24,000 bases of DNA, taken from positions 53,611 to 77,610 of the forward strand of contig JBFIER010000011.1 in NCBI GenBank assembly GCA_041603255.1, in the 5' to 3' direction. Under the pieces are notes generated by a model. That model searched no databases, was not told where the DNA came from, and saw nothing but the letters and a program-made list of their open reading frames with translations. How positions within the stretch are numbered: the first letter of the stretch is position 1; each line of letters starts with the position of its first letter. Shown here piece by piece: positions 4,362-24,000 of the stretch. A program made the translations under genes and the position numbers. The stretch is from Oceanococcaceae bacterium. Lineage in GTDB: Bacteria; Pseudomonadota; Gammaproteobacteria; Nevskiales; Oceanococcaceae.

Positions 4362-4370
4362 ACTCCAAAA

Positions 4371-6267: not shown

Positions 6268-6304
6268 TTCGCGCCCATTACGGGCCGTTGCTCGAGGAGA
6301 TCAC

Positions 6305-7114: not shown

Positions 7115-7125
7115 GGGGAAATCTC

Positions 7126-7162
7126 CAAGAAGCCGCCTTGACCAGGCGGCTTCTTGCTTTTG
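7126..7162 (+). terminator. Strong stem-loop with a short T-tract between subunit C and subunit A genes (attenuator, transcript-processing or stability element)
   Basis: CAAGAAGCCGCC (7126-7137), loop TTGACCA, GGCGGCTTCTTG (7145-7156): a perfect 12-bp stem, followed by CTTTTG. It lies 12 nt after the pmoC stop and 15 nt before the pmoA ATG. Confidence 0.5.
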
Positions 7163-7176
7163 AGTGAGGGAGACAT

Positions 7177-7923: not shown

Positions 7924-7941
7924 TTTCCCGAGGAGAGATTC

Positions 7942-9168: not shown

Positions 9169-9764
9169 TGAAGTTGTTGTCTGCACTGCTTCTGCTGTTT
9201 CTCGCCGTGGGCGTGGCCACCGAAGTCTCCGCTCACGGTGGGGTCTCGGTGGAAGACGATGCCTGTGTCATGCGCATTGGTCCGTATCGGGCGCATTTCA
9301 CGGGCTACCAACCCGAGCTGCGGGCAACCCAGGAATTCTGCGAAGACATTCCGGAAACGGCCTCGGCCATCATCGTGCTGGACTTCATCGATGGCGAGCT
9401 GCGCGATCAGGAAATGGCCTTCTACCTGTTGCGCGATGACAAGGGCATTGGCAAAACTGCGACCTTCAAGGATCTCGGGTCGATGGACGCGGTGCGTTCA
9501 GACTGCATCCTGTGCGTGGAGCCCAAGAAGTATCCTCGTGGCACAATCACGCTGGACTACCCTTTCACCGAAGGAGGCTGGTACATCGGCGTGCTGGAGG
9601 CGCGAAATCCGGAAACGGGCGAGACCATCCATTCGGTGTTTCCCTTCCAGGTTGGCGTGCGTCACTACTGGGGTTTTGTCATCGCAGGCCTGATCGTGGT
9701 GGCGCTCTCGGTGTTGCTCTACCGCGTTACCGGAAGAAACCTTGCGAGTAAAAACACGGCTTGA
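9168..9764 (+). CDS. Membrane-anchored periplasmic protein of unknown function in the PmoD/AmoD syntenic position (candidate copper protein)
   Basis: The ATG overlaps the pmoB stop (TGATG). A signal peptide ending VSA exposes His23 (HGGVSVEDDAC). There are four Cys, including C113-x2-C116 (SDCILCVEP, nt 9504-9515). A single C-terminal TM helix (HYWGFVIAGLIVVALSVLLYRV) follows. The architecture (signal peptide, about 140-aa periplasmic domain, one C-terminal TM) and the position between xmoB and copC match PmoD/AmoD/AmoE. I cannot confirm homology by eye. Confidence 0.45.
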   Translation: MKLLSALLLLFLAVGVATEVSAHGGVSVEDDACVMRIGPYRAHFTGYQPELRATQEFCEDIPETASAIIVLDFIDGELRDQEMAFYLLRDDKGIGKTATFKDLGSMDAVRSDCILCVEPKKYPRGTITLDYPFTEGGWYIGVLEARNPETGETIHSVFPFQVGVRHYWGFVIAGLIVVALSVLLYRVTGRNLASKNTA

Positions 9765-10156
9765 ATGACATGCGAGTACCCACCCGCTGGCACCATATTC
9801 TCACGACACTTGCGCTGACCCTGATCTCCGGGGCCGTTTGCGCACATGCCGCGCTGGTTCGCTCCGTTCCCGGCACGCGTGCCGTACTGCAGGGTTCGCC
9901 AACGCAAATCGAGCTGTGGTTCAACGAGGCGGTCGAGGAGTCGTTTTCGACGATCACGCTGGTGGCCCCGGGCGATGTCGAGGTGCAGCTGGGAAAACCC
10001 CATGTGGATTCCAGTGATCCCTACCGTCTGGCCGTGGATCTGCCCGCGCTGAGTCCGGGGCGCTATACCGTTCGCTATCGCGTGCTGTCCAAAGATGGGC
10101 ACCTGGTGGAATACGGATACCAGTTCGTGTTGGAGTCTGCGCCCGAACGCCCGTGA
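9761..10156 (+). CDS. copC: CopC-family periplasmic copper-binding protein (Cu(II)-site-only type)
   Basis: A signal peptide ending VCA exposes HAALVRSVPG (the N-terminal His of the CopC Cu(II) site). VRYRVLSKDGHLVEYGYQF is the CopC C-terminal signature (DGH). The mature protein has no Met, so the Met-rich Cu(I) site is absent. The start is either TTG 9761, overlapping the upstream stop, or ATG 9770. Confidence 0.85.
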   Translation: MNDMRVPTRWHHILTTLALTLISGAVCAHAALVRSVPGTRAVLQGSPTQIELWFNEAVEESFSTITLVAPGDVEVQLGKPHVDSSDPYRLAVDLPALSPGRYTVRYRVLSKDGHLVEYGYQFVLESAPERP

Positions 10157-12159
10157 TCGAATCTCTCGGCGTTGCAGGGCGCATGGTGTTCCTGCTGGGC
10201 GCACTGGGAGCAGTGGGCAGCGCCGGTTTCCTGCTTTTAGCTCCCGCGGCATCCGCACCGGCTTCTGCGGTGAGCGCCTGGCGCCTGATGTGGTTCTGGC
10301 GGTTGGGGTTTTTCCCGTTGCTGATCGGGCTGGGCCTGGCGCTGCAATTGCTGGCGCAGGCACTGAACCTCATGGGGCCGGAACTCGCCAAGGCCTTGCA
10401 TCCCGAAGTACTCGAGCCGCTGCTGCGACGAACCAATTTCGGTTGGGTCTGGAGCGCCCGGCTCGCTGCGATGTTCCTGCTGGTCTTGTTCTGGGCGGGC
10501 ACGCTGGGCATGAAGCGCGGGGATCGCCGGTACAGCGCCGCTCCGGTACTGGTGCTGGCAGCGCTGGCCGCCATGATCGGCCCTTTTGCCGGGCATAGTT
10601 CCGGCGCCGAATCACCCCCTTTGATGATGAGCCTGAATGCGCTGCACATCCTCGCGGCGGGGCTGTGGGCGGGTGCGCTGCCGTGCTGGGTAAGCTGGGC
10701 ACGCCTGAATCGGGTGCAGGCTGCCGCGCCCAATGCCATCGATACGGTGCGGCGATTTTCAACCCTTGCTGCCGGGTGCGTGGTGATCCTGCTGCTCAGC
10801 GGCGTGTGGCTTGCGGATGAGTTCGTTGAACACCTCGGTGATTTGCTCGGGACCCGTTATGGCCTGCTGATCGTCGTCAAGGTTGGGTTTTTTGCTGCGG
10901 CGCTGCTGTTGGCCAATCGCATACGTCACCGGCTGCTGGAAATGCCGAAAGGGGGCGGTGCGGGCCACTCGGGCTTTTTCGCCGGTGTCGTTATGTCGGC
11001 GCGGGGTGAGCTATTGGCGGTGCTGCTGGTGGTCATCGCTGCGGGTGCGTTGGCGCAGACTACGCCGGCGATTCACGATCAGCCGGTCTGGTTCCTGCCG
11101 TTTCGGGTATCCCCCGAAGCCGCCTGGGATGCCTGGCCGGAAGCCTTGTACGGTGGCCTTTATGGCCTGCTGGCTTTGCTGGCTCTGGGGCTCTGGGGGG
11201 GCGGCCGGGTCTGGAAGAAACCGCTGCCGACGCCACTTGCGTGGGGATTGCTGCCGACCGTACTGGTGGGGGGCAGCGGGGCGTTGTACTGGTTCTCCGT
11301 TCCCGCTTACCCGGATACCTATCGGCGTTCGGATGTGCCGTATCTGGCAGCGTCCGTGGTCCAGGGACAGTTGCTGTTCGAGCAGCACTGCGTCTCCTGC
11401 CATGGCAGCGGTGGGTTGGGAGATGGCAAGCAGGCCGCCTATCTGCCGGTGCCACCGGCCGACCTGAGCGAACCCCATACATCGCTGCATACGGCCGGCG
11501 ACATGTACTGGTGGTTCACGCATGGTATTCCCCAGAGCGGTATGCCCGGTTTCGCCGGCAAGCTGAGTGAGCAGGATCGCTGGGATCTGGTCAATTTCCT
11601 GCGGGCCTTCTCGCGTGGGTTCGAGGCCCGTGTATTGCGCGATGTGATCGTGCCGCGCGACCCCTGGCTGGGGGCGCCCAATTTCTACTTCGACAGCCCG
11701 GCCGGGTTTTCCGAGCTGAAGGCGTTGCGGGAGACCCACACCGCACTGCTGGTGTTCGCGGATTATGCGAATCCGCAGAGCCAGGAGCGCCTGGCGGCAC
11801 TGGATCGTGCGCAGCCTCGACTGCAGCAGGCCGGTTTGCGGATTTTGGTGGTGCCGATCAACCCGGAGCTGCCCGAGCCGGCGTTGCCCGCGCTGCAAAT
11901 TGTGCGCAACGAGGCGCGGCCGATCTGGGCGACCTACAGCCTGTTGTCACGCAGCCTGGCTGATCGGGGTGACGATGACGCGCTGGGGGTGCAGCGTACG
12001 CATGTGGAATTTCTGGTCGACCGGTTTGGTTATCTGCGGGCGCGATGGATACCCGGAGAGTCCAGCGGTTGGACAGATATCGAGCGTTTGCTGACTCAGG
12101 TAAATGCCTTGATGACGGAACCGGAAATCGAGCCGCCGCCTGACGACCACGTGCATTAA
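10153..12159 (+). CDS. copD: CopD-family membrane protein fused to a mono-heme c-type cytochrome and a Cys-less thioredoxin/redoxin-like C-terminal domain (668 aa)
   Basis: The GTG start overlaps the copC stop (GTGA). The N-terminal ~300 aa are polytopic with CopD-like FAGHSSGAE and LHILAAGLWAGALP. More TM helices extend to about aa 395. CVSCHGSGGLGDG (C413-x2-C416-H417, nt 11389-11403) plus a downstream GMPGF give a class I cytochrome c. From about aa 500-650, TALLVFADYANPQSQERL...GLRILVVPINPE...HVEFLVDRFGYLRARW looks like an AhpC/TSA/redoxin fold, but ANPQS (nt 11767-11781) sits where CxxC is expected. Confidence 0.8.
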   Translation: MIESLGVAGRMVFLLGALGAVGSAGFLLLAPAASAPASAVSAWRLMWFWRLGFFPLLIGLGLALQLLAQALNLMGPELAKALHPEVLEPLLRRTNFGWVWSARLAAMFLLVLFWAGTLGMKRGDRRYSAAPVLVLAALAAMIGPFAGHSSGAESPPLMMSLNALHILAAGLWAGALPCWVSWARLNRVQAAAPNAIDTVRRFSTLAAGCVVILLLSGVWLADEFVEHLGDLLGTRYGLLIVVKVGFFAAALLLANRIRHRLLEMPKGGGAGHSGFFAGVVMSARGELLAVLLVVIAAGALAQTTPAIHDQPVWFLPFRVSPEAAWDAWPEALYGGLYGLLALLALGLWGGGRVWKKPLPTPLAWGLLPTVLVGGSGALYWFSVPAYPDTYRRSDVPYLAASVVQGQLLFEQHCVSCHGSGGLGDGKQAAYLPVPPADLSEPHTSLHTAGDMYWWFTHGIPQSGMPGFAGKLSEQDRWDLVNFLRAFSRGFEARVLRDVIVPRDPWLGAPNFYFDSPAGFSELKALRETHTALLVFADYANPQSQERLAALDRAQPRLQQAGLRILVVPINPELPEPALPALQIVRNEARPIWATYSLLSRSLADRGDDDALGVQRTHVEFLVDRFGYLRARWIPGESSGWTDIERLLTQVNALMTEPEIEPPPDDHVH

Positions 12160-12184
12160 CAATCAACTTCTAGAGGAATCGATC

Positions 12185-12679
12185 ATGTTCAATACCAAAC
12201 TTCCCCGGGTTTCGGCGCTGGCCGCCTGCATGACGCTGGCCGTGACGGCCTTCACCGCTATTGCCAATGACAAAAACGATGCCCACAGCATGCACGAGGG
12301 GCACATGATGCACGCTGGTGATGCGTCCATGAAAAAGAACGCCGGCAGTTATCCGGAATTGAAGATCCTGCTGCCGCAGGACGGCGCGACCGTCAGCTCG
12401 CAATTGGCCGTGGTGTTTTCAACGCCGGGACATATGGCGGATCTCACCATGGGCGCGCCGACACCGGGCGTCCACCTGCATATTGATACCCAGGATGTGT
12501 CGTTGATGCCGACGATGCAGCAGCTGGTCTCCCTGGGCGGCGGCAACTATCTGTTTCTGTTTGATCTGCCGGTCAAGCCGGGCGCGCACAAGATCAACGT
12601 GTACTGGTCCGATGCGCAGCACAAGACCATTCAGGAGTCGGTGCGCTCCATCACCGTCACGGTGCCAGCAAAGCGGTGA
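12185..12679 (+). CDS. Periplasmic His/Met-rich protein with a DUF4399-like beta-sandwich domain (candidate copper-binding protein)
   Basis: GAGGA Shine-Dalgarno and a signal peptide ending AIA. A HSMHEGHMMHAGDASM tract (nt 12284-12331) resembles periplasmic Cu(I) Met/His motifs. The body (ELKILLPQDGATVSS..., GVHLHIDTQD..., GAHKINVYWSD...ITVTV) resembles my recollection of DUF4399 (GHHHLLID..., GxHxL...). Confidence 0.55.
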   Translation: MFNTKLPRVSALAACMTLAVTAFTAIANDKNDAHSMHEGHMMHAGDASMKKNAGSYPELKILLPQDGATVSSQLAVVFSTPGHMADLTMGAPTPGVHLHIDTQDVSLMPTMQQLVSLGGGNYLFLFDLPVKPGAHKINVYWSDAQHKTIQESVRSITVTVPAKR

Positions 12680-12695
12680 ATTTTCGGGTTTTTTA

Positions 12696-12742
12696 GATAG
12701 GGATAGTGGAAGACCCAACTAAAGTTAGGTGATCCCCCTATC
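12696..12742 (+). promoter_or_regulatory. Candidate operator: inverted GATAGGG / CCCTATC half-sites upstream of the RND-DUF1329-BNR-DUF1302 operon
   Basis: GATAGGG at 12696-12702, with an adjacent imperfect ATAGTGG, and CCCCCTATC at 12734-12742. The same 8-mer CCCCTATC plus TAGGGGG occurs at 4180-4200, upstream of the paralogous minus-strand operon. Both regions also contain GGAAGA when read in the direction of transcription. Confidence 0.25.
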
Positions 12743-12847
12743 AGCGGGTACGTACCATCACTCCACAGTCAGGCGTGCTGTCCGTACGCCTGAATTACGT
12801 GCGAGAGACACCCGCGTCGAAAGACCGGAAACGAGGGGACAATCAAG

Positions 12848-15352
12848 TTGAGCAGTACGCAATCAAATACCGGCGCGGGTCCAGGGCTGGACTCCATACG
12901 CTTCAAGGTTGCTGCATGGGTCATGCGGCAGCGAAAAGCCATGTTGGTGTTTTTCGCCCTGGTGACTTTGGGGTTTGCCGCGGGTCTGCCCGGCCTGACC
13001 ATCAAAACCATCTTTTCCGATCTGCTGCCGGCAGACGATCCCTTTGTTCAGGTCTATCAGGACCACCGCAACTTCGGTAATCCGTTGTCTGTGGTGGTCA
13101 TGATCAAGAACAAGAAAGGCGATATCTACAACCACGACACCTTGAGCAAGGTGTGGAACCTGACCCGGGACATCGACCTGGTTCCCGGCATCGACCACAA
13201 CACCTTGATCTCGATCGCGACGGAAAAAGCCCGCTACGCCGAGGCCACGCCTTATGGCGTGGACATGCGGCCGATCATGGAGGACAAGGTTCCGACCGAC
13301 CCCACCGAGATCGCGGATTTCCACCGCCGGGTTGAGCAAAGCCCGAACGTCCGGACCTTCTATGTGTCCGGCGACCAGACGGCAACGCTGATCACCGCAG
13401 CCTTCCTGGAAAACCTGCTGGATTACGGCGTGGTGTTCCAGGGTGTGCAGGACCTGGCCGAGAAGTATCGCGACAAGAACCACGAGATCTACGTGGTGGG
13501 GCAGCCGATTCTGACGGGTTGGGTGTACAAGCTGCAGAAGCAGACCTACATGATCTTCGCGATTACGCTGGGCGCGCTGGCCATCGCGTTGGCGCTGTAC
13601 ATGCGCAACATCGCCGGGACGCTCACGCCGATTATCTGTAGTTCGGTTGCCGCCATCTGGGGCTTCGGTCTGGTCGGCTGGATCAGCTCGCCGATTGAAC
13701 CGCTGCTGATGATCGTGCCGTTGCTGTTGATCGCGCGATCGTTCTCGCACTGCGTGCAGTTCTCCGAACGCTTCTACGAGATCTACTCCGAAATCGGTGA
13801 CAAGCGGAAGTCCGCAGAGATCACGATGGCCGCCATGATGGCGCCGTCGATTCTGGGTGTGATCACCGACGCGCTGGGGATTTTCTTCATCGCGCTGGCG
13901 CCGATCCCGGCCATGGAACGCTTCGCGCTGTTCTGCGGCTTCTGGGCGCTTTGCATCATCCCGACCGGCGTTTTCCTGATCTCCATTCTGCTGTCCTATC
14001 TACCGGATCCCGGCAACATCGAAGATCTGGTTTCGCACAATGACACCGGGTTCCACGCCTTCCAGAAGCGCGTGCTGCAGAAGGTCGCCGCGCTGTGCTA
14101 CGGCCGGCTCGCCAAGTACACCACCATCGCGACGCTGGTCGTGGCGGTGGGGGCGGTGTATCTGGCATCGCAGATCAAGATCGGCAACCCGGTCGAAGGC
14201 TCCAACCTGCTCTGGGAGGATTCGGACTTCAACACGGCGATCCGGGCGGTGAATGCCCACTTCCCGGGTGTGAACACGCTGGAGATCGTGCTCGAAGCCA
14301 AGGAGCGCGAGATCACCAACCGGATTGCCCGGACTCCGGATGCGGTTGCCGCATCGCTGCAGCTGCAGGCGCTGGTCGAGGCCGACCCGATCATGCCGCC
14401 CCGGGCCACTTTGTCCTTCAGTGACTACATGATGGAGGGCAACCGCTTGTTCTCCGGGGGTGACCCCAAGTGGTATCCGCTGGACCCGACGCGTTCATCG
14501 GTGGCTGCGGCCAGCAACGCGGTGACTTTCGGTACCGACCCGGTCAACTTCGCCCATATCACCGACTTCGAGTTCCAGAACTCCACGGTGTCGTTGTGGT
14601 ACGCGGACAACAAGCAGGAAACCGTGGACGCGGCGCTGGCCAGTGCGCGGCGTGCGGTCGAGATCGTGGGTGAAGACCACCCCACGTTCCGCATCCGTCT
14701 GGCGACCGGCAATATCGCTCTGCAGCAGGCCATGAACCTGGTGGTGCACCGCTATCACTGGCTGATTCTGGGCATGTTGAACTGTGCGATCTTCCTGATC
14801 TGCTGGTATGCGTACCGGTCCATGGTGGCGGCCATCATCGTGTTGATCCCGGTGAACCTGTCGAACTTCCTGCTGACGGCAACCATGCACGTCATGGGAA
14901 TTGGTCTGGACATCAACTCGGTCATGGTGGCGGTGCTGGGTGTGGGCGTGGGTATCGACTACGGGATCTACCTGCTCTCGCGTATTTGCGAGGAGTACAC
15001 CGCGAATGACCAAGACTGGACCTGTGCCATTCGGGAATCCCTGACCACCACCGGGAAGGCAATTCTGTTTACCGCAACCATCATGCTCATCGGCATCCTG
15101 CCGTGGTACCTGCTTTCCGACCTGAAGTTCATGGCGGATATGGGGCTGCTGCTGGTGGCCATCATGCTGATCAACATGGTGTTGGCGCTGGTGGTGCTGC
15201 CACTGCTGATCTGGCTGATCAAACCGAAGTTTGCTGCTCGTGATGACCTGATGGTTGGTGAGAGCATCGACTTGTCCCAATTCAAGACTGCCAGTTCGAA
15301 TGAGGGTGACAAAGGTGGGATGCCACCTCTGGCCGCGCAATCACCCGCCTAA
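12848..15352 (+). CDS. RND-superfamily (MMPL/HAE3-like) inner-membrane transporter, paralog 2 (834 aa)
   Basis: Full-length ORF with TTG start and a GAGGGGA Shine-Dalgarno upstream. Same architecture as 362-2731 and colinear with it. It has an extra C-terminal hydrophilic tail. Confidence 0.85.
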   Translation: MSSTQSNTGAGPGLDSIRFKVAAWVMRQRKAMLVFFALVTLGFAAGLPGLTIKTIFSDLLPADDPFVQVYQDHRNFGNPLSVVVMIKNKKGDIYNHDTLSKVWNLTRDIDLVPGIDHNTLISIATEKARYAEATPYGVDMRPIMEDKVPTDPTEIADFHRRVEQSPNVRTFYVSGDQTATLITAAFLENLLDYGVVFQGVQDLAEKYRDKNHEIYVVGQPILTGWVYKLQKQTYMIFAITLGALAIALALYMRNIAGTLTPIICSSVAAIWGFGLVGWISSPIEPLLMIVPLLLIARSFSHCVQFSERFYEIYSEIGDKRKSAEITMAAMMAPSILGVITDALGIFFIALAPIPAMERFALFCGFWALCIIPTGVFLISILLSYLPDPGNIEDLVSHNDTGFHAFQKRVLQKVAALCYGRLAKYTTIATLVVAVGAVYLASQIKIGNPVEGSNLLWEDSDFNTAIRAVNAHFPGVNTLEIVLEAKEREITNRIARTPDAVAASLQLQALVEADPIMPPRATLSFSDYMMEGNRLFSGGDPKWYPLDPTRSSVAAASNAVTFGTDPVNFAHITDFEFQNSTVSLWYADNKQETVDAALASARRAVEIVGEDHPTFRIRLATGNIALQQAMNLVVHRYHWLILGMLNCAIFLICWYAYRSMVAAIIVLIPVNLSNFLLTATMHVMGIGLDINSVMVAVLGVGVGIDYGIYLLSRICEEYTANDQDWTCAIRESLTTTGKAILFTATIMLIGILPWYLLSDLKFMADMGLLLVAIMLINMVLALVVLPLLIWLIKPKFAARDDLMVGESIDLSQFKTASSNEGDKGGMPPLAAQSPA

Positions 15353-15378
15353 CGTATTACTCACGAGGAGACACAACC

Positions 15379-16767
15379 ATGAATATCCGTAAGTACGACT
15401 TCAATTACGGCCGTCGGAAACTGATGGAAAACACCGCACTCGGACTGGGTGCGGGGGTTTTGATGCCGCTGGCCGACGTGTTCGCGGCTGAAGGTGACAT
15501 CAGCAAGGCTTACCCGGAAGAGCATCTGTCGATTGAGATGTACACCAAGGGCAAGATCAGCACCGGTGACATCATCGATGCCAGCAATGTCGACCTGATC
15601 AAAGAACTGTTTGACCCCAGCATCTACGACCAGATCAAGAACCTCGGTCGCAAGATCAAGATTCGTAAGACCACCACCGATTTCTCGAAGATGTTCCCCA
15701 ACGACTTCTACGAGTTGACGCTGCGCAACGTCGGTAATGGCGTCAAGGCACAGTGGGATGCCAAGGGTAATGTTCGCTCTCCCGATGGCTCGCCCTGGGT
15801 GGGCGGCCTGCCGTTCCCTGACCCGAAAACCGGTGACGAAGTGCAGGCCAACCTGGCGATGAGCTGGGGGCGGGGCAACTACTGTCAGTACGCGGTCAAC
15901 GACAGCGTATTCAACAACGGTAAACAGGCCTACAGCTATGACCTGGTCTGGGCCGAGTTGCAGATGGCCGGGCGTCCGGACGGCAAGATCTTCATGGACC
16001 GGGATGATCTGGTTCGTTTGCAGACCGTGCTGTTCACCGCTACCCAGGACGTCGCGGGCAGCTCCTTCCTCTCGATTTGGTACTACGACCAGTCCAAGTT
16101 CCCGGATCTTTACGGTTACCTGCCGCAGTTCCGCCGGGTGCGTCAGTTCCCGACCAACCAGCGTTTCGAGCCGCTGATTCCGGGCGTGACCTGGTTCCTT
16201 TCCGACCCCTGGGGCGCCGGTGACCCGATGCGCACCTGGAGCGAGTACAAGATCGTCGAGCGCAAACCGATGCTGGGGCCGTTCAACACGAACTTCGTCG
16301 GCACCAATAACTGGAACACCACCACTCACGGCGGTGAAAGCGGCGAGCTGTTCTTCGATACCGAATATGAGCTGGCTCCGGAAGTCGTGACGCTGGAGTC
16401 GAAGCCGACGGGTTATCCGCGGGCGCCGGTCGGTCATCGCCACTGCTACGTCGATACGCGTATGTGTCTGGCCGGCTCGTCGATCCGCTATGACCGTCAG
16501 GGCAAGATGTGGGTTAATTTCGAGGCCGGTTACGGTCAGCAAATCGACCCGGTCAACAACATCGAGATCAAGGGTCCGGACGGCAAGAGCACGGCCTGGT
16601 CCTGGATGTACGTGCTGTCTTATGACCACCAGAACCAGCGCATGAGCCGTGCCCGTCACCTGGAAGAGTGTGCCGGCGGCTACCAAAGTCAGCTGGGCGG
16701 TGACGATGAACTCGCGTACGACACCTTCTTCACCCAGCAGGCCCTGCAGCGCCTGGGGCAGGTTTAA
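15379..16767 (+). CDS. DUF1329-family (LolA-like fold) periplasmic protein, paralog 2 (462 aa)
   Basis: GAGGAG Shine-Dalgarno. The N-terminus has GRRKLM followed by a hydrophobic stretch ending FAAEG. Colinear with 2736-4130. Confidence 0.8.
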   Translation: MNIRKYDFNYGRRKLMENTALGLGAGVLMPLADVFAAEGDISKAYPEEHLSIEMYTKGKISTGDIIDASNVDLIKELFDPSIYDQIKNLGRKIKIRKTTTDFSKMFPNDFYELTLRNVGNGVKAQWDAKGNVRSPDGSPWVGGLPFPDPKTGDEVQANLAMSWGRGNYCQYAVNDSVFNNGKQAYSYDLVWAELQMAGRPDGKIFMDRDDLVRLQTVLFTATQDVAGSSFLSIWYYDQSKFPDLYGYLPQFRRVRQFPTNQRFEPLIPGVTWFLSDPWGAGDPMRTWSEYKIVERKPMLGPFNTNFVGTNNWNTTTHGGESGELFFDTEYELAPEVVTLESKPTGYPRAPVGHRHCYVDTRMCLAGSSIRYDRQGKMWVNFEAGYGQQIDPVNNIEIKGPDGKSTAWSWMYVLSYDHQNQRMSRARHLEECAGGYQSQLGGDDELAYDTFFTQQALQRLGQV

Positions 16768-17798
16768 TGCGTAACGGTACGTTTGGTCGAGGGCAGCGTG
16801 TTGCTGCCCTCATAGCCTTCGCCGCCATCGTTCACCCGGCATGGGCAGAGTCCAAGGACGACGCTGTGCATATCCACTCGGCAGAGAGTGAACTGGTGCG
16901 CGTGGGGACTCCGCATGCCGCGCTGTTTGACGTCAGCGCCTATGGCAGTCGTCTGTTCACCGTGGGTGCAGCTGGCCAGATCCTGCGCAGCGATGATGGC
17001 GGGAAGCAGTGGGAACCCGAGTTGGCGCCCAGCCCCGCGGCTTACCTCGGGGTGTCAAACGCCGGTGATTACGCCGTTGCGGTGGGCCAGATGGGAATCG
17101 TCGCTTACCGCAACCTTCAAGGCGAATGGGCCGTTGCCGAAAGCAACACGACGGAGCGTCTGTTCGATGTTTCCATCAACGCCCGCGGAGTCGGTGTGGC
17201 TGTGGGAGCGTTTGGCGCCCTGATCCGTACCTCCGATGGTGGCAAGACGTGGGTGGAGGCTGCGCCTTCCTGGAAAGGGGTGTTCCGGGACGGGGCCGGT
17301 CGTTTGGGTGAGTTTTTCACCCCCAGTCTTTACACCGTCCAAACCTCAGAAAGCGGCAAAGTCTGGGTTGGCGGGGAGCTGGCTCTGATCATGACCTCGG
17401 AGGATGGTGGTGTGAGCTGGACCATTCGCAATGCGGGTGGCAACGATGAAGAGGGAATCGAGCCGACGATCTCCGCGATTGACGTGCGCTCGGATGGTGT
17501 TGGGTATGCCGTGGGGCAGGAGGGGTTCATCCTGCGTACGGAAAACGCCGGAGCGACCTGGGCTTCACTACCCAGACCCACCAAATCCAATCTGCTTGGC
17601 GTTGCCAGCAAGCGGGATGGGACCGTTGTTCTCAGCGGGATGCGTGACATGCGTATCAGCCGAGACGACGGGCGCACCTTCAATCCGGTCTACGGGAACG
17701 GGATTGAAACGGGGTGGTTTCATGGGGTCGTCGCCGTTGATGGAGCACATGCGCTCACCGTGGGTATCGCTGGGAAGGTACTCCGGGTCATCAATTAA
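16767..17798 (+). CDS. BNR-repeat / Ycf48-like beta-propeller periplasmic protein
   Basis: The ATG overlaps the upstream stop (TAATG). Signal peptide ends AWAESK. Repeated SxDxGxxW-type BNR motifs: RSDDGGKQW, TSDGGKTW, TSEDGGVSW, TENAGATW, SRDDGRTF. Confidence 0.8.
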   Translation: MRNGTFGRGQRVAALIAFAAIVHPAWAESKDDAVHIHSAESELVRVGTPHAALFDVSAYGSRLFTVGAAGQILRSDDGGKQWEPELAPSPAAYLGVSNAGDYAVAVGQMGIVAYRNLQGEWAVAESNTTERLFDVSINARGVGVAVGAFGALIRTSDGGKTWVEAAPSWKGVFRDGAGRLGEFFTPSLYTVQTSESGKVWVGGELALIMTSEDGGVSWTIRNAGGNDEEGIEPTISAIDVRSDGVGYAVGQEGFILRTENAGATWASLPRPTKSNLLGVASKRDGTVVLSGMRDMRISRDDGRTFNPVYGNGIETGWFHGVVAVDGAHALTVGIAGKVLRVIN

Positions 17799-17842
17799 AC
17801 AATTCCGCGCATAGAGGCAGCGGTATACACAGGGAAGAGACA

Positions 17843-20011
17843 ATGAATTTGCGTGAAACTTGCACGGCGTTTTCCGTGGCAGTCATTGGAGTCATGGGGG
17901 TTATGCCGGTTGACGAGGCGGATGCAAAAATCCGCTTTTCGTACGGTGGCTTTCTTCGACTTGAGGCGGCATACCATATCGGGCAAGAGAACCCGAACAA
18001 TCAGGGCGGCAACCTGCTCAACGATGTTGAGGTGCACCGGGAGCCGTTCCTGCCGCCCAACTACATTCAGGGTGCAGGGCCGACGATTGCGCCGCGTTAT
18101 GACAGCGTTTCGTTGGACCTGCCCTACGGGGACGATCTCCGGCGCGGCGACCTGGTCCCCAGCACCGAAAATGATTTCAACTACACCGTCGTTCGGGGTG
18201 AGGTTGAAGGCATCCTGAAGTTCAATCGCAGCTGGCGCATCGTGACCCGGGTGCGGGGCATCTACGACCCGGTCATCTACGACGAGTTCGACGCCCAAAG
18301 TGTCAGCAACCTGCCGGTGTACGAGCAGGGCGGTATCAAGAGCGGCCCCTGGGCCGACCCGGCCCTGTATGAAAGTACACCGAACTATTTCGAGTACTCG
18401 GTTGCTGACGGGAACGGCGGTTTTGCACCGGGCAACCCGGTCGAAATCGCCGGGCGCAATTACATGGTCGACCTGCCGGCGGCGATTCTCGAGTACAACC
18501 ATCGCTCGCTGAATTTCCGCATCGGGAACCAGCAGATCGCCTGGGGGCAGTCCATCTTCTTCCGGGTGTTTGACGTGCCGAATGGCCTGGACCTGCGCCG
18601 GCACTCGATCCTGGACCGCGCGCTGGAGGAGTTCTCCGACAAACGGGTGCCGATGCTGTCCGCACGGGTGACCTACCAGGTGACCAACAACATTCTGTTT
18701 GATGGGTATGTGGGCAAGTTCCAGCCCACCGTGTTTGGCAACCCCAACACGCCCTACAACATCATCCCGGTGCAGTTCACTGTGCAGGACACCTACAAGA
18801 GCGGGGGCTACGATGACGAAATCGTCGGCGGTTTCCGCCTGAAAGGCGACTACGGGCAATGGGGCTTCCAGCTGGGTTATGCCCATCGCTATGGTACGGA
18901 GGGGGTGTTCCGCTGGACCGAAACCGGGGTCGAGCAGCCGCTGGGTGATGGCGTCGGTCCGAATGTGCTGGGAACGGCAGATCTTGTCGGCACGCTGCCA
19001 ATTATCGGAGACATCGCGGCGACAGGCTTATCGGCTGGTGCGGTCACCATGATGGATTACAACTTGAAGTCACCCGCAGGCACCGGGCTGTGCCCGGCCG
19101 AGTCCTTTGATGACCCGGACTACAACTATTCCATGTGCCGCAGCTACGCCAATACCGCCGAAGCCCTGGCCCATGCGTCCTTCCATCCCGGGGCCGGTGG
19201 TGTTTACTCGGCTGAAGAGTGGTTCCGCTATGCCGCCGAGGTGCGTCTGGACGGCATCATGGGGCTGAATGCGGCGATCAACGAATTCCCGGCTGCGCAG
19301 GATGTGTACGCCTCCCCGGTGGCCAATGCTTCCGAGGCTGAGGGTGAACTGGGCACCTTCTTTGTAGCCACCGGCGGGGCGCTGCGTGGGCATATTGCCC
19401 GTGAGTACTTCCGCGAAGACAACTTCATGGCCGGTGTGAGCTATGTGGTCGAGTCGGATATCGACTTCCTCAACCAGTTGATCATCAACCTGGAAGGGCA
19501 GTACACGCCGGAGCGACACTTCACCAACATCACGCTGTCGCGCGAGTACATCAAGCAGGACGAATACATCATCTCGCTGGTAGCCGACAAGTGGCACCGC
19601 TTCTTCAACGAGTTCCCCGGTACCTACATCGTGATGCAGGCGCTGACCCGCAACCGCGCGGATCTGGTCGGGCGTCATCTGTCCGGGATGGGCGGCAAGC
19701 CACTGGACAAGTTGAAGCCGGACGATACCCGGACGACGACGCCCATCAATCACAACTCCAACTACCTGGTGCTGGGCTTCCTGCAACCCTGGCCGAACAA
19801 GATTTATGAGCTGGAGTTTGCCTCCCTGCTGGACCTCGAGGGCGGGGTCTTTGCCCAGGCGGGTCTGCGCTGGAACCCGGGTAAGGGCATCACCATCGAA
19901 GGCTTCTACAACTATGTGGACAGCGGCCTGTGGGGCAACAAGTACAACAACCTGATGTCCACCATTGATTTCGCCGAAGAGTTCACGCTTCGCGCGGCCT
20001 ACCAGTTCTGA
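17843..20011 (+). CDS. DUF1302-family outer-membrane beta-barrel protein (722 aa)
   Basis: Signal peptide, alternating beta-strand-like aromatic/Gly-rich composition throughout, and a C-terminal AAYQF ending in Phe (OMP signature). Its size and its neighbourhood with DUF1329, BNR and RND genes match the recurrent DUF1302 gene context. Confidence 0.75.
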   Translation: MNLRETCTAFSVAVIGVMGVMPVDEADAKIRFSYGGFLRLEAAYHIGQENPNNQGGNLLNDVEVHREPFLPPNYIQGAGPTIAPRYDSVSLDLPYGDDLRRGDLVPSTENDFNYTVVRGEVEGILKFNRSWRIVTRVRGIYDPVIYDEFDAQSVSNLPVYEQGGIKSGPWADPALYESTPNYFEYSVADGNGGFAPGNPVEIAGRNYMVDLPAAILEYNHRSLNFRIGNQQIAWGQSIFFRVFDVPNGLDLRRHSILDRALEEFSDKRVPMLSARVTYQVTNNILFDGYVGKFQPTVFGNPNTPYNIIPVQFTVQDTYKSGGYDDEIVGGFRLKGDYGQWGFQLGYAHRYGTEGVFRWTETGVEQPLGDGVGPNVLGTADLVGTLPIIGDIAATGLSAGAVTMMDYNLKSPAGTGLCPAESFDDPDYNYSMCRSYANTAEALAHASFHPGAGGVYSAEEWFRYAAEVRLDGIMGLNAAINEFPAAQDVYASPVANASEAEGELGTFFVATGGALRGHIAREYFREDNFMAGVSYVVESDIDFLNQLIINLEGQYTPERHFTNITLSREYIKQDEYIISLVADKWHRFFNEFPGTYIVMQALTRNRADLVGRHLSGMGGKPLDKLKPDDTRTTTPINHNSNYLVLGFLQPWPNKIYELEFASLLDLEGGVFAQAGLRWNPGKGITIEGFYNYVDSGLWGNKYNNLMSTIDFAEEFTLRAAYQF

Positions 20012-20024
20012 CACTTCCCCCAAT

Positions 20025-20071
20025 CTCACCCACGTCAATGCCTTACGGGCGGCGTGGGTGAGTATTTGCTT
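20025..20071 (+). terminator. Putative intrinsic terminator downstream of the DUF1302 gene
   Basis: CTCACCCACG (20025-20034) pairs with CGTGGGTGAG (20053-20062): a 10-bp stem with an 18-nt loop, followed by the T-rich TATTTGCTT. The loop is long, so confidence is moderate. Confidence 0.4.
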
Positions 20072-20134
20072 GTGGCGCGGCTCGCCGTCCCACGGGTGAA
20101 CTTTGAGTATCGGATTGATAGAGAGGAGAACCTC

Positions 20135-21697
20135 ATGCACATGAGTCAAATGGTCTACCGCTGCGAGCAGATGTGTGGATCCAGCATCGCCACGGAATTT
20201 CAGGGGCGTGCATTCACTTGGGCGGAAACGGCAGATCGCGTCCGCCGCATGGCCGGCATGCTGCAGCAACTGGGCATTCAGGAGAACCAGCAAGTCGCGG
20301 TCCTCTCGCTGAACAGTGATTTATATTTCACCGCGTTGTTTGGTGTGCCGCAGATGGGGGCGCGGATTGTGCCGCTGAACATTCGTTGGGCGCTGCCCGA
20401 GTTTGTGTACGCCCTGAACGACTCGGAGACCTGTGCGTTGATGTTCGATGCGGCATTTCTGCCCATCGCCACTCAACTGCGCGATGAAGACACCCGAATC
20501 AAACACTATTTGTTTATGGGCTCGCGGGAGGCGTGTCCGGAATGGGCGGTGCATGTCGACACCGCTCTCGAGAGCGCCCCCGCCGTTCCTGATTTCAAAG
20601 TATCCGAGCAGGAGTTGGCGGGGATTTTTTACACCGGCGGCACGACCGGCTTTCCCAAAGGGGTCATGCTCACGCATACCGCCTTGTTTACCAGTGCGTT
20701 GAGCCTGGTGGCTGCATCCGATGCGACACAGCAGGACACTATGTTGCACGCCGCGCCGATGTTTCACATGGCGGATCTGGCGGCGTGTTTCATGTTTACC
20801 CTGCTGGGAGCACGCAATGTCATCGTGCCGGCTTTCGAGCCGAAGTTGGTGCTGGAAAGCATCGCCAAATACGATGTGACCGATGCGTTGCTGGTTCCGG
20901 CGATGGTTCAGATGGTGTTTGATCATCCGGAGTTCGCGGCCGAGAAGATCTCTGGCATGAAGCGCATTCTGTACGGCGCGTCGCCGATGCCCGAGGGTTT
21001 GATGCGCCGGGTGATGCAGGCATCCCCGGGCGTGCAACTGGTTCAGGCCTACGGACAGACCGAACTGGCACCGGTGGCGACGATACTCAAGGCCGAGGAC
21101 CACGTGCTCGAAGGCGAACGTTCGCGGCTACTGCGCTCTGCCGGGCGTAGCAGTTGCTCCATGTTGCTGAAGATCATCGACAAGGATGGTCAACCGGTAC
21201 CGGTGGGAGAGGTCGGCGAGATTTGCTGTGCCGGCCCCAACGTTATGTTGGGTTACTGGAACAAACCTGAGCAGACGGCCAGTACATTGATCGACGGCTG
21301 GGTGCATGCCGGCGATGCCGGATACCTGGATGACGAGGGCTACCTGTTCCTGGTCGATCGGGTGAAGGACATGATCGTCACCGGCGGCGAGAACGTGTAT
21401 TCGGCAGAGGTCGAAAGTGTGGTGTCACGCCATCCGGGTGTCGCGCAGGTCGCCGTTATCGGTGTGCCGCATGACGAGTGGGGCGAGGCGGTTCACGCCA
21501 TCATCGTGCCGCGTCCGGGTGAGGAGCCGGTTGCCGATGACATCATCAGCTATTGCCGCACGTTGATCGCCGGTTACAAGTGCCCGAAAAGTGTCGAGTT
21601 ACGGATGGACCCGTTGCCGCTTTCCGGTGCCGGCAAAGTGCTCAAGCGGGAGCTGCGTGCGCCTTACTGGGAAGGGCGCGACCGGCAGGTCAACTAA
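20135..21697 (+). CDS. Acyl-CoA synthetase / fatty-acid-CoA ligase (class I adenylate-forming enzyme)
   Basis: AMP-binding signature FYTGGTTGFPKGVMLTH. Also QAYGQTELAP, GDAGYLDDEGYLFLVDRVKDMIVTGGENVYSAEVE and the C-terminal GKVLKRELR. The start is moved to ATG 20135 (MHMSQMVYR), preceded by a GAGGAG Shine-Dalgarno. The track's start at 20054 lies inside the terminator hairpin. Confidence 0.85.
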   Translation: MHMSQMVYRCEQMCGSSIATEFQGRAFTWAETADRVRRMAGMLQQLGIQENQQVAVLSLNSDLYFTALFGVPQMGARIVPLNIRWALPEFVYALNDSETCALMFDAAFLPIATQLRDEDTRIKHYLFMGSREACPEWAVHVDTALESAPAVPDFKVSEQELAGIFYTGGTTGFPKGVMLTHTALFTSALSLVAASDATQQDTMLHAAPMFHMADLAACFMFTLLGARNVIVPAFEPKLVLESIAKYDVTDALLVPAMVQMVFDHPEFAAEKISGMKRILYGASPMPEGLMRRVMQASPGVQLVQAYGQTELAPVATILKAEDHVLEGERSRLLRSAGRSSCSMLLKIIDKDGQPVPVGEVGEICCAGPNVMLGYWNKPEQTASTLIDGWVHAGDAGYLDDEGYLFLVDRVKDMIVTGGENVYSAEVESVVSRHPGVAQVAVIGVPHDEWGEAVHAIIVPRPGEEPVADDIISYCRTLIAGYKCPKSVELRMDPLPLSGAGKVLKRELRAPYWEGRDRQVN

Positions 21698-21713: not shown

Positions 21714-24000
21714 CTAGATCAGCCCCAGATCCTGCGCTCTGGCCAAAGCGCCAGAGCGGTTCTTGACGGCCAGCTTGCCGTAGATGTTGTGCAGGTGCCA
21801 CTTCAGCGTGCCTTCAGACACGAAGATGGCTTCCGCGATTTCCCGGTTGCTGAGCCCGGATTGCAGGCGTTTCAGGATTTGCGCCTCACGCTGTGTGAGC
21901 TCTTCGAGTAGTGTTTCCTGCGAGAGATTGCGCTCGCGGGCGACCGCCTTGGGCGCGCTGGTTGTGGCTTCCCGGATCCGACGCAGCAACGGCGCCGCCG
22001 CCTTGTGCGCCGGCTCGAGCTTGATTTTTCCCAGCAGGTTGGTGATCAACTCACCCTCATCCACGAAGATGCGGAAGTACTGGTGCTGGGCGCCCAGCAT
22101 CAGCGCATCACGCAGCACCAGCAGGGCCGTCGCTTCATCATCCGCCAGTGCATAGGCCTGGGCCTGCAATAACAACAGCTGGGCCTCACGATGGGCCAGC
22201 TTCAGTTCGCGGCTGTGCGCGATGGCCGAGGTCAGACAATCGGCGGCACGCTCGGGGTTGTCGCTCAAGTGCAGGCGGCTGGAGACGCGGTAGGATTTTT
22301 CGGCCTGCAGTGAAAAATCGTGCTCGTCACAGGGCTTTTGGTCCAGATCAAGCTGCCGTGCCCGCGCATGCGCCAGTTCAAACCGATTATCACGGCACAG
22401 CCAGCTGATTTCTTCGGTGGCCAATGTCAGCTCGGCGCGGTGCAGGCCGGAACGACGGGCCCGCTCCTGCCCGGCTTTGAGGCAGTTGTAACCGGATTCC
22501 GCCCCGCCATTCGCATAATAAATGCGCGCCTGGGCCAGATGCTGAATGATCAGGTAATCGGCCTGCACATAGTCGTCGTCATTCTCCGGCACGGCATCGA
22601 GGTGCGTTTGCGCTGCGCCGAAGTTTCCCCACTCGTACTCGACAAACGCCAGGATGGCGTGGCCAATGCCGGCGTGCTGATACAGACCCGGCATGTGGAC
22701 CTGCATGTGCTCGATAAGCTGCCGGGCAGTGTGGTGGGCGGCCTCGAAATCACCACGCTTGAGCATGATGAAACCCTCGATGGCGAAGTTCCAGGCCAGT
22801 GGGTAATAGCTTTCGGTGGCGACGAGGCGGGCTCTGGCGTCATGTACCACGTCCAGTGCCTGATCCAGTCTGGACCAGCTCTTGAGCGCAAAGGCATACA
22901 CGTTCAACACCGTGCCGATCCCGCTCTCGCTGTCGTTGGTCCATCGCGCCAGCCATTGCTCGCAGTTGCGCAGCATCGCTTCTTTCTGGTCGCTGATCCC
23001 GGCGAGGTGGCACTCATGCTTGCCGATTTCACGTTCCAGCGTTTCGATCAACTGCTGGTTCTCTTGCGGGCTTTTGCGGAGCTCGGCCAGCTGATCCCGC
23101 AGGATTTGCAACTGCACTTCCACGACTTGCGGGCGAGCGAAAAAAATCAGTGCAAAGACGTAGTTCAGGCGAATCTGCGGATGTTGCATTGCCCATTCAT
23201 TTGGCAGCTGATCCATCCACTCCATGATCGTATGCAGATAGCCCCGCCGAAACACCAGGGTTTCGACGCTGGCATCCAGCCATTGGCTGGCTTCCGCCCA
23301 GGCCTGCGCGCGCATCGCGTAGTGAATGGCTTCAACCAGCAGCCCGCGGTCGTACAAATTATGGGCGCCACGGATCAGGGCGTTGCGGCAGTAATCCGGG
23401 TGATGGCGCTGACCCTGCTCACGGAAGAATTGTCCGACCAGATGGTGAAAGCGGAACCAGTGCCCGCTCTGGTCCATCCGTTTGAAGAACAGATTGCGGG
23501 AGTGCAGTGAATCGAGTTTTTTTCTGGCCTCGACATCGCCGGTCGCGGCGGCCACCAGATCGGCATCAACCCGGTTGAACTGGGCGATGGCAAAAATGAA
23601 CTGCCGGGTTTCCACATCCAGGTGCTCGAGCAGCACCTCACCGAGGTATTCCATGACGCTGGCGTCGTTGCCCGCGAAGTCGGAGACCAGCTGGTTCGGG
23701 TCGGCGCTGCCATCAAGAATCAGCGTGGCCAGTTCCAGTCCCGCCGGCCAGCCCTCGGTCCGTGTGCTCAACTGTTGGATGCTGGTTTCCGACAGGCAGT
23801 CACCGAGCCGGGAGGTCACGAAATCCATGACTTCCGTATCGGTAAACTTGAGCTGGTCGGTGCCATATTCAACCAGTGTGCGACGGACCCGGAGCCGGCT
23901 CAGCGGCAGCATGCTCTCGGTACGGCTCCCCAGCACGAATTGCAGCTGTGGCGGCGCGTATTGCGTCAGCCACTGCAAGATCTTGAGCACTTCGGTGTTG
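21714..24000 (-). CDS. LuxR/MalT-like large transcriptional regulator, C-terminal ~760 aa (N-terminal ATPase part lies beyond the window end)
   Basis: C-terminal LuxR HTH: LTQREAQILKRLQSGLSNREIAEAIFVSEGTLKWHLHNIYGKLAVKNRSGALARAQDLGLI. A long helical/TPR-like middle region. The reading frame stays open from the listed GTG at 23990 to nt 24000, so the gene is truncated by the window. Convergent with the acyl-CoA synthetase, with a 16-nt gap. Confidence 0.8.
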   Translation of the reverse strand, partial: NTEVLKILQWLTQYAPPQLQFVLGSRTESMLPLSRLRVRRTLVEYGTDQLKFTDTEVMDFVTSRLGDCLSETSIQQLSTRTEGWPAGLELATLILDGSADPNQLVSDFAGNDASVMEYLGEVLLEHLDVETRQFIFAIAQFNRVDADLVAAATGDVEARKKLDSLHSRNLFFKRMDQSGHWFRFHHLVGQFFREQGQRHHPDYCRNALIRGAHNLYDRGLLVEAIHYAMRAQAWAEASQWLDASVETLVFRRGYLHTIMEWMDQLPNEWAMQHPQIRLNYVFALIFFARPQVVEVQLQILRDQLAELRKSPQENQQLIETLEREIGKHECHLAGISDQKEAMLRNCEQWLARWTNDSESGIGTVLNVYAFALKSWSRLDQALDVVHDARARLVATESYYPLAWNFAIEGFIMLKRGDFEAAHHTARQLIEHMQVHMPGLYQHAGIGHAILAFVEYEWGNFGAAQTHLDAVPENDDDYVQADYLIIQHLAQARIYYANGGAESGYNCLKAGQERARRSGLHRAELTLATEEISWLCRDNRFELAHARARQLDLDQKPCDEHDFSLQAEKSYRVSSRLHLSDNPERAADCLTSAIAHSRELKLAHREAQLLLLQAQAYALADDEATALLVLRDALMLGAQHQYFRIFVDEGELITNLLGKIKLEPAHKAAAPLLRRIREATTSAPKAVARERNLSQETLLEELTQREAQILKRLQSGLSNREIAEAIFVSEGTLKWHLHNIYGKLAVKNRSGALARAQDLGLI

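Follow-up and report, generated by a model that had tools for sequence, protein, structure and literature searches.

A four-gene RND, DUF1329, propeller and DUF1302 set beside a copper membrane monooxygenase module of an Oceanococcaceae bacterium: a candidate envelope system for hydrophobic molecules

The stretch of DNA analysed here, called the window, comprises 24,000 nt from an Oceanococcaceae bacterium (contig JBFIER010000011.1, approximately 60% GC). At positions 12848-20011 it carries four tightly packed, co-oriented genes on the + strand, encoding in this order an RND transporter, a DUF1329 protein, a BNR beta-propeller and a DUF1302 barrel. The locus is a real and well-formed member of a known system, described elsewhere as AmeABCD, and it is not a new kind of system. 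A relay architecture, leading from the RND transporter with its propeller to the carrier and on to the barrel, is well supported and very probable. Our preferred reading, which we put forward tentatively, is that the set works as an AmeABCD-type four-component envelope system for very hydrophobic molecules with the traffic directed inward.

A preliminary description of this DNA had read the four genes as a trans-envelope conveyor. This reading fits the evidence, but the idea is not new, as it is contained in the published cofit cluster (Price et al.), in AmeABCD and in the fatty-ester system of Pseudomonas putida (Thompson 2020). The preliminary description did not connect the set with the operon for a copper membrane monooxygenase (CuMMO) upstream of it, nor with a second pair of RND and DUF1329 genes. 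What is new here is that the set lies directly downstream of the CuMMO module, with the second RND-DUF1329 pair on the other side, and that the RND is very conserved and expanded, with at least 28 orphans in catabolic clusters and two fixed set orders. The conserved signals for twin-arginine translocation (Tat) on both DUF1329 carriers are also a new detail of this analysis.

Organization of the Four-Gene Set

All four open reading frames (ORFs) were found on the + strand at the coordinates first proposed for them, and Pfam bore out the families. The gaps inside the set are 26 nt between the RND and DUF1329 genes, -1 nt between the DUF1329 and propeller genes, and 44 nt between the propeller and barrel genes. 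The announced overlap of start and stop codons at 16765-16769 is seen as TAATG, in which the stop of the DUF1329 gene overlaps the start of the propeller gene. Downstream of the barrel gene there is a hairpin (20025-20062, +) with a 16-bp stem followed by UAUUUGCUUG, for which the centroid fold gave -26.5 kcal/mol and z = -2.8 relative to shuffles. It is terminator-like, as had been described, but its U-tract is weak, and a generic terminator scan of the window found 7 terminators versus 6.7 expected, which is the level of chance. A generic promoter scan of the window returned 0 promoters.

The RND Transporter

The first gene, RND2 (12848-15352, +), encodes an MMPL/HAE3-like RND transporter (Pfam MMPL 3.7e-21, 75.9 bits versus a cutoff of 20.5). 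Its start is ambiguous: TTG at 12848, with a GAGGGG Shine-Dalgarno sequence 9 nt upstream, gives 834 amino acids, and ATG at 12923, chosen by a gene caller on an identical contig, gives 809. The hydropathy profile consists of transmembrane helix (TM) 1, a loop of about 180 amino acids, TM2-6, TM7, a loop of about 200 amino acids, and TM8-12, both loops being periplasmic. An alignment-based AlphaFold2 (AF2) model contains 12 long helices, with a predicted local distance difference test (pLDDT) of 82.5 and a predicted template modelling score (pTM) of 0.78. Hydropathy and model together bear out the proposed 12-TM RND/MMPL pump, and RND2 is confirmed as a 12-TM inner-membrane protein of the MMPL/HAE3 type.

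The nearest structures to the model are MmpL4/5, MmpL3, NPC1/NPC1L1, Patched and HpnN, with TM-scores of 0.6-0.77. The top NCBIfam match was HAE3 (TIGR00921, 1.9e-35), whose 122.1 bits stay under the cutoff of 351.9. Scores were also far under the equivalog cutoffs for HpnN (46.8 versus 1100), MmpL3 (40.4 versus 1400) and BstA (29.4 versus 1400), the likeness to these three being at the level of fold only, and the ACR_tran score of 26.6 was sub-threshold at a cutoff of 28. In an alignment of 44 sequences, R272, S275, H276 and Q279 were invariant in TM4, as were D679-Y680 in TM10. The latter two residues are part of GVGIDYG, which aligns to the proton-relay motif IDYG of MmpL3. The buried Arg and His of TM4 and the Asp-Tyr of TM10 would be compatible with coupling to protons and the proton-motive force (PMF).

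DUF1329 Carriers and Their Signal Peptides

The second gene encodes DUF1329_2, a LolA-like carrier of 462 amino acids (15379-16767, +; Pfam DUF1329 2.3e-50), which matches PF07044 over its full length at 172 bits versus a cutoff of 23.1. The matches of the DUF1329 carriers to LolA_like (PF17131) were sub-threshold, at 21-27 bits versus a cutoff of 30 (2.5e-4 for DUF1329_2), and no sequence relative of DUF1329 was found in the PDB. This protein and the propeller had been introduced as two soluble proteins with signal peptides. Both have cleavable signals and neither has a lipobox, but the signal of the DUF1329 protein is of the twin-arginine type (GRRKLM, MNIRKYDFNYGRRKLM...VFA/AEG) and not a plain Sec signal. 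The window contains a second carrier of 464 amino acids, DUF1329_1 (2736-4130, -; Pfam DUF1329 1.5e-51), which is 46% identical to the first and has a canonical Tat signal, SRRKFL...PLWA/A. There are two subtypes of DUF1329; subtype 1, to which DUF1329_1 belongs, is elsewhere placed after the barrel or directly before the RND gene.

The N-terminus (M)xIRKYDxxY[GS]RRx[FLM][LM] was conserved in both carriers of the window and in all 41 RND-adjacent homologues inspected. Among representatives of the whole DUF1329 family the RR motif occurred in the nearer clade only, the distant members having Sec signals. Judged by motif, hydrophobic stretch and AxA site, the carriers are predicted Tat substrates, and the twin-arginine signal predicts that they are exported in the folded state. 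The stretches with the motif are located at 15379-15500 and 4010-4130(-) in the window, and in homologues from loci L006-L085. Within the signal, the conserved IRKYDxxY forms the n-region ahead of the twin arginines.

Propeller and Outer Membrane Barrel

The third gene (16767-17798, +) encodes a Ycf48-like BNR beta-propeller of 343 amino acids (Pfam PSII_BNR 1.4e-18, 67.7 bits versus a cutoff of 27; BNR 7.8e-9). Its PDB matches were Ycf48, to 1e-7, and it carries a Sec-type signal, ...HPAWA/ESK, with no lipobox.

The fourth gene (17843-20011, +) encodes a DUF1302 outer-membrane beta-barrel of the long form, with 722 amino acids (Pfam DUF1302 1e-18). PF06980 gave 68.2 bits versus a cutoff of 23.2, residues 109-557 corresponding to profile positions 68-365 of 541; the match stops at residue 557, and the later profile positions are unmatched. 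The protein has a signal peptide, ...DEADA/KIRF, and ends in Phe (...LRAAYQF). The search for homologues gave 720, and PF06980 was present in all 120 among those listed. An AF2 model from a 58-sequence alignment (pLDDT 86.9, pTM 0.87) shows approximately 18-20 long strands, and this confident barrel model and the -AAYQF end agree with the earlier claim of a large barrel ending in Phe. The model also contains a helical insert at about residues 386-509; with limits at residues ~355-513 it measures about 160 amino acids and comprises five to six helices as well as conserved Cys. Foldseek searches with the model returned only generic barrels of the porin, OprD/Occ, chitoporin and MOMP kinds (TMt 0.45-0.55, 6-8% identity), and no sequence relative was found in the PDB. 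The FadL/TodX family Toluene_X (PF03349, 14-strand) gave no hit to the barrel, the model matching 16-18-strand porins instead. Signals and models thus bear out one arrangement of compartments, in which the RND transporter is placed in the inner membrane, the DUF1329 protein and the propeller are predicted to be exported and soluble, without lipobox, and the DUF1302 protein is predicted in the outer membrane.

Conservation Across Genomes

A genome scan with the RND2 protein found 214 relatives, of which the 80 best-matching loci (61-83% identity) were typed by tblastn with the window proteins. The top locus came from an Oceanococcus metagenome-assembled genome (MAG), at 83%. The full set of DUF1329, BNR, DUF1302 and RND genes was adjacent in 25 of the 80 loci, always in one of two fixed gene orders. 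The order of the window, RND-DUF1329-BNR-DUF1302, was found in 14 loci, often with a second DUF1329 gene of subtype 1 after it, and the order DUF1329-BNR-DUF1302-(DUF1329)-RND in 11. Two further loci contained truncated sets. In 28 loci the RND gene is an orphan, flanked to either side by 7.5 kb or more (7.5-10 kb) without a DUF1329, BNR or DUF1302 gene, and 25 partner-less RND loci had short flanks. The preliminary description had named co-conservation as the test on which its proposal should stand or fall, and the set is indeed co-conserved, yet adjacency is facultative.

The orphan RND proteins (e.g., L021, L025, L028-L030, L033-L035, L037-L038) are 61-67% identical to RND2, closer than RND1, the second RND protein of the window (54%). 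Their gene neighbours are acyl-CoA dehydrogenases, luciferase-like and flavin (FMO-type) monooxygenases, enoyl-CoA hydratases, TauD dioxygenases, hydrolases and short-chain dehydrogenases/reductases. Several RND paralogues occur per genome, as in Panacagrimonas perspica (L029, L057, L080). RND genes locally far outnumber the barrel and propeller genes, which suggests that the outer components are shared among RND paralogues. The partners vary more than the RND protein: mean column identity across RND paralogues was 70%, periplasmic domains included, versus identities of 33-73% for the barrel, 33-61% for the propeller and 49-72% for DUF1329. Culturable carriers of the cassette include Sinimarinibacterium thermocellulolyticum, Panacagrimonas perspica, Hydrocarboniphaga daqingensis and Solimonas marina.

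Neighboring Genes

Directly upstream of the set, on the same strand, lies a complete CuMMO module (5448-12679, +). Its eight genes encode MerR (5448-6191), AmoC (6245-7114), AmoA (7177-7923), AmoB (7942-9168), a conserved signal-peptide protein of 198 amino acids (9168-9764), CopC (9761-10156), a CopD-cytochrome c fusion (10153-12159) and a Met/His-rich protein of 164 amino acids (12185-12679). Pfam identified all of these except the 198-aa partner, which has no family assignment, and the 164-aa protein, which has none either and shows a weak match to DUF4399. Solimonas aquatica (L086) has all eight genes in this order. In Nevskia (L091) and two Joint Genome Institute (JGI) contigs (L088, L092) the order is kept from AmoC to the small protein, and no MerR gene is shown. 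After the module, L092 has an AMP-ligase, an FMO-like monooxygenase and an alpha/beta hydrolase (11852-16119), and L091 a carboxylesterase (15499-16434). Genes of the wax-ester synthase WS/DGAT flank the CuMMO genes in L002 (5577-7031) and L003 (12717-14108).

Among named AmoA sequences the nearest belong to Sinimarinibacterium and Panacagrimonas (79%), followed by those of Solimonas (73%) and Nevskia (70%). Together with the Oceanococcus RND locus they point to a gammaproteobacterium of the Nevskiales type as the source, and by sequence the CuMMO belongs to the hydrocarbon lineage. Recurrent neighbours of CuMMO genes are esterases, AMP-ligases, an FMO-like monooxygenase of the Baeyer-Villiger type, WS/DGAT and, once, a MalT-type regulator. 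The esterases, ligases, FMO-like enzymes and WS/DGAT suggest that this CuMMO lineage may feed a sub-terminal oxidation by way of esters.

The end of the CuMMO module is marked by a stem-loop with a U-rich tract, AAUUUUCGGGUUUUUU (12651-12694, +; fold -20.8 kcal/mol, z = -2.2), which is a probable boundary between the module and the RND set. From the module to the TTG of RND2 at 12848 there is a gap of 168 nt. This leader contains a perfect 10-bp hairpin, CAGGCGTGCT-N-...-ACGCCTG (12770-12792), without a U-tract, which could be a regulatory or processing element; an Rfam scan of the window, this hairpin included, gave no match. A common operator motif was sought upstream of RND2, DUF1329_1, the ligase and AmoC with nothing convincing found, and a plasmid search with window positions 6000-20100 gave no match. 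Searches for exact copies of the DUF1329 and barrel protein sequences were likewise negative.

Downstream of the set follows a gene for a long-chain fatty-acid--CoA ligase (20135-21697, +; Pfam AMP-binding 2.1e-82; NCBIfam NF004837, 503 bits versus a cutoff of 476). The reading frame is open from GTG 20054, a codon within the hairpin, and the start is most likely the ATG at 20135, which is preceded by the ribosome-binding site GAGAGGAGA. Convergent with it is a gene for a MalT-type LuxR-family regulator (21714-23990, -; TPR_MalT 3.3e-24, GerE 8.6e-16), whose N-terminus lies past the window end and which aligns to positions 142-896 of the 903 of MalT. Such a regulator adjoins about nine related loci and also one related CuMMO module, and the acyl-CoA ligase likewise recurs beside the sets in Pseudomonas and about nine related loci.

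The other side of the CuMMO module is occupied by the RND1-DUF1329_1 pair (362-4130), which comes without a barrel or propeller gene. RND1 (362-2731, -; Pfam MMPL 4.3e-30) is a second MMPL/HAE3-like RND transporter, of 789 amino acids with 12 hydrophobic segments. Between this pair and the module there is a gene for an alpha/beta-hydrolase (4507-5463, -), esterase- or lipase-like by the sub-threshold matches COesterase 1.7e-5 and Lipase_3 4.8e-4. It was called as a gene on the identical contig, and a 50% identical homologue stands beside the MerR and CuMMO genes in Sinimarinibacterium.

The intergenic region of the esterase and DUF1329_1 contains a cluster of repeats resembling repetitive extragenic palindromic (REP) elements (4283-4491). 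It holds two direct copies of 54 nt, 98% identical and 103 nt apart, each with a perfect hairpin, TCTCCGCGCC-N6-GGCGCGGAGA, along with longer inverted repeats. An ORF of 351 amino acids (4193-5248, -) was considered as a second propeller or barrel and rejected, as it had no family hit and overlaps both the REP-like cluster and the hydrolase gene; we regard it as spurious because of the repeats.

Mechanism and Direction of Transport

According to our proposal, cargo would be handed from protein to protein and not through an aqueous duct of the TolC kind. The porin-like DUF1302 barrel would take it through the outer membrane, the Tat-exported, LolA-like DUF1329 protein would ferry it across the periplasm, and the Ycf48-like propeller would be docked onto the periplasmic domains of a PMF-driven, MMPL/HAE3-like RND transporter in the inner membrane. 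In this way the cell would take up an insoluble substrate and bring it to the inner membrane, with oxidation, hydrolysis and activation with CoA to follow, and the inward hand-off would be analogous to the transfer of cholesterol from NPC2 to NPC1/NPC1L1. The CuMMO module, the esterase, the acyl-CoA ligase and the MalT-type regulator would wire the set to the catabolism of hydrocarbons and fatty esters, and one barrel and one propeller probably serve both RND-DUF1329 pairs of this genome.

The physical contacts among the components are inferred from published AlphaFold-Multimer work. In that work a "novel hypothesized substrate transport system" was modelled with contacts of DUF1329 to both barrel and RND, and with strong contacts of the propeller to RND (Foldy 2024). 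A 2026 study gave an interface predicted template modelling score (ipTM) of 0.84 for DUF1302 with DUF1329, no structure of DUF1302 being in existence (ECLIPSE 2026).

Genetic data come from several bacteria. In Shewanella, Kangiella and Pseudomonas, genes of the four families show cofitness with one another (Price et al.). In P. putida the DUF1302/DUF1329 genes PP_0765/0766 and the BNR/RND genes PP_2018/2019 were all four needed on Tween 20, and PP_0765, PP_0766 and PP_2018 on butyl stearate as well, while none was needed on free fatty acids (Thompson 2020). The fitness link to fatty-acid or alcohol metabolism that the preliminary description had mentioned thus stands as a phenotype on fatty esters in sequencing of transposon sites with random barcodes (RB-TnSeq). 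In Delftia, deletion of the DUF1329 gene impaired growth on phenanthrene, and a DUF1329/YCF48/MMPL cluster was highly expressed in a benzene-degrading Desulfobacterota strain.

Acquisition is the direction that we tentatively prefer, for four reasons. Firstly, a cytoplasmic acyl-CoA ligase is encoded immediately downstream and recurs in this position, which resembles the logic of FadL and FadD. Secondly, the defects of the P. putida mutants were cell-autonomous and ester-specific in pooled libraries. Thirdly, the RND paralogues sit in catabolic clusters, and finally, the structural neighbours of the RND2 model include NPC1 and the cholesterol-uptake protein NPC1L1.

A number of observations weigh against inward traffic or against the tie to the CuMMO. 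To our knowledge, all characterised bacterial RND lipid transporters (HpnN, MmpL3/4/5, BstA) move their cargo outward. The sole study that addressed direction concluded export, from a slightly raised Nile Red signal seen only in cells given carbonyl cyanide m-chlorophenylhydrazone (CCCP) (PMC6394551). The phenotypes in Shewanella and P. stutzeri were pleiotropic and were taken as a sign of envelope biogenesis (Price et al.). Moreover, the linkage between CuMMO and RND set is not conserved. None of the 80 RND loci had a CuMMO gene within 10 kb. Conversely, seven other CuMMO loci of the lineage with long flanks were inspected, and in six of them (Panacagrimonas, Solimonas, Nevskia, two JGI metagenome contigs and a Pseudomonadales MAG) no DUF1329, DUF1302 or HAE3 gene was found within 10 kb. 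The sole exception was the locus of Sinimarinibacterium, where DUF1329 is encoded 8 kb upstream and an MMPL protein 7 kb downstream. A metagenome scan for the linkage of CuMMO and conveyor, anchored on the CopD-cytochrome c gene, returned one irrelevant locus.

Alternative Explanations

The first alternative, which we consider rather unlikely, is that the same architecture works outward, as a substrate-induced efflux and tolerance system that rids the inner membrane and periplasm of membrane-partitioning hydrocarbons, or of the alcohols and esters that are their intermediates. This was proposed for AmeABCD of Castellaniella defragrans 65Phen, described as a "tetrapartite RND transporter", an exporter of a new HAE3 subfamily, with the AmeD lineage placed inside HAE3 by phylogeny (Puentes-Cala & Harder 2018, PMC6394551). 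The mutants ameB::Tn and delta-ameABCD grew more poorly on monoterpenes, and the latter had lower monoterpene tolerance and yield, was rescued by acetate and accumulated more Nile Red (PMC6394551). However, the Nile Red signal was only "slightly higher", and only in cells de-energised with CCCP (PMC6394551). In sequence and structure the RND transporter has the exporters MmpL3/4/5 and HpnN as its neighbours, and a pump would make sense beside a monooxygenase that produces membrane-active alcohols. On the other hand, the growth failure of the P. putida mutants is specific to fatty esters, compounds of low toxicity, given as the only carbon source, and the co-located acyl-CoA ligase is hard to explain by efflux. 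Nor did Pfam find a domain of a membrane-fusion protein (MFP; HlyD/BSH_RND) or of a TolC/OEP-type partner among the 22 window ORFs scanned.

It is improbable, in our view, that the cargo is an endogenous envelope lipid exported to the outer membrane or cell surface, such as a wax ester, a hopanoid-like lipid, or a component of surface hydrophobicity or of vesicles and nanopods, with only an indirect effect on growth with hydrophobic substrates. The "export of a cell wall component" was indeed proposed from pleiotropic phenotypes (Price et al.). DUF1302 and DUF1329 proteins are components of nanopods and outer-membrane vesicles in Delftia, and the DUF1302 protein PA3923 of P. aeruginosa is surface-exposed, binds laminin and affects biofilm. 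The high column identity of the RND paralogues, with the periplasmic domains included, suggests one common cargo or partner, and WS/DGAT genes are found beside related CuMMO operons. A housekeeping exporter would, however, not be expected to have many paralogues in variable catabolic clusters, nor to be induced specifically by monoterpenes, p-cresol or phenanthrene, and no lipid-biosynthesis gene was found in the window.

That DUF1302 and DUF1329 are enzymes, i.e., a cell-surface esterase as once raised for the ester-specific phenotype (Thompson et al.), with the RND transporter and propeller as unrelated neighbours, is hardly credible. Neither protein has a hydrolase motif or family hit in Pfam or NCBIfam, and DUF1302 is modelled as a porin-like barrel. 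Synteny and cofitness extend to all four genes, and the same group later moved to a transport model. To an enzymatic or any other explanation we leave a very small chance at most.

Returning to acquisition through the four-component relay, a bolder extension can be formulated, although it is a long shot. Hydrocarbon degraders of the Nevskiales type might operate a hub-and-spoke acquisition network, in which many strongly conserved RND paralogues, each in a different catabolic cluster, share few sets of barrel, propeller and Tat-exported DUF1329, here wired to the CuMMO. If true, the network would bring water-insoluble hydrocarbon to the CuMMO or carry off its alcohol and ester products. As a dedicated route for delivering substrate to a CuMMO it would be the first to be proposed, and larger, insoluble substrates would be implied for this CuMMO lineage.

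The transport of very hydrophobic compounds such as alkanes, terpenes, polycyclic aromatic hydrocarbons and fatty esters across the Gram-negative periplasm is poorly understood, and the four-component system is among the few genetically supported candidates for it. The value of the present locus is in its catabolic context, where the juxtaposed hydrocarbon monooxygenase, esterase and acyl-CoA ligase narrow the plausible cargo, and in its testable predictions on Tat dependence, a shared hub and the class of cargo. The culturable carriers of the cassette offer a handle on direction, Tat dependence and the ligands of the carrier.

Comparison with Known Systems

Tripartite HAE1 pumps such as AcrAB-TolC and TtgABC also combine an RND transporter with an outer-membrane barrel and often stand beside genes for solvent degradation. 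The set in the window differs from them in having no membrane-fusion adaptor and no TolC/OEP channel, and its RND protein is of another clade. The Lol pathway (LolCDE-LolA-LolB) likewise places a periplasmic carrier of the LolA fold between an inner-membrane machine and an outer-membrane acceptor. There, however, the machine is an ABC transporter and the acceptor LolB, versus a putatively PMF-driven RND and a large barrel here. The LolA_like hits were sub-threshold, and no ABC transporter such as LolCDE was found in the window. In NPC2 and NPC1/NPC1L1 a soluble, beta-rich lipid carrier passes cargo to a membrane protein of the RND fold, with traffic toward the membrane. These proteins are eukaryotic and distant and have no outer-membrane component, and the analogy is one of mechanism, not of membership.

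HpnN, MmpL3/4/5 and BstA are similar to RND2 in the 12-TM RND fold, the small periplasmic domains and the IDYG in the proton-relay helix, and they hand hydrophobic lipid cargo to periplasmic or outer-membrane partners. The partners are different: DUF1329, propeller and DUF1302 in the window, versus none, MmpS/AcpM or BstB/BstC in those systems. Two further candidates for comparison were put aside. AupA/AupB, for alkane uptake in Marinobacter, were considered as DUF1302/DUF1329 and dropped, the paper showing AupA to be FadL-like; PahS/PahP of Cycloclasticus were not used, their family not being established.

Closer relatives, with families as in the window, are Sama_1588-1591 of Shewanella amazonensis, the PP_ genes of P. 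putida and PA3923. As the preliminary description had stated, and as the literature confirms, the DUF1302/DUF1329 genes of Pseudomonas adjoin a LuxR/MalT-type regulator and an acyl-CoA ligase, with a LuxR regulator and acyl-CoA ligases nearby in P. putida (Thompson 2020). This is the arrangement of the window, but the four Pseudomonas genes are divided between two loci and there is no CuMMO.

The closest counterpart by family content is AmeABCD. It combines DUF1302, DUF1329, a COG4447/Ycf48-like propeller and a COG1033/HAE3-type RND in one cassette, lies inside a hydrocarbon (monoterpene) catabolic island and is induced by hydrophobic substrate. AmeABCD is barrel-first (ameA-D) whereas the window set is RND-first, and the barrel has 605 amino acids versus 722 with a helical insert in the window. 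The second RND-DUF1329 pair is extra in the window, and the neighbouring enzymes are those of an aerobic CuMMO in place of anaerobic monoterpene enzymes. With these differences, the set in the window shares the genomic features of AmeABCD: the four families, contiguous and co-oriented, recurring together in other genomes.

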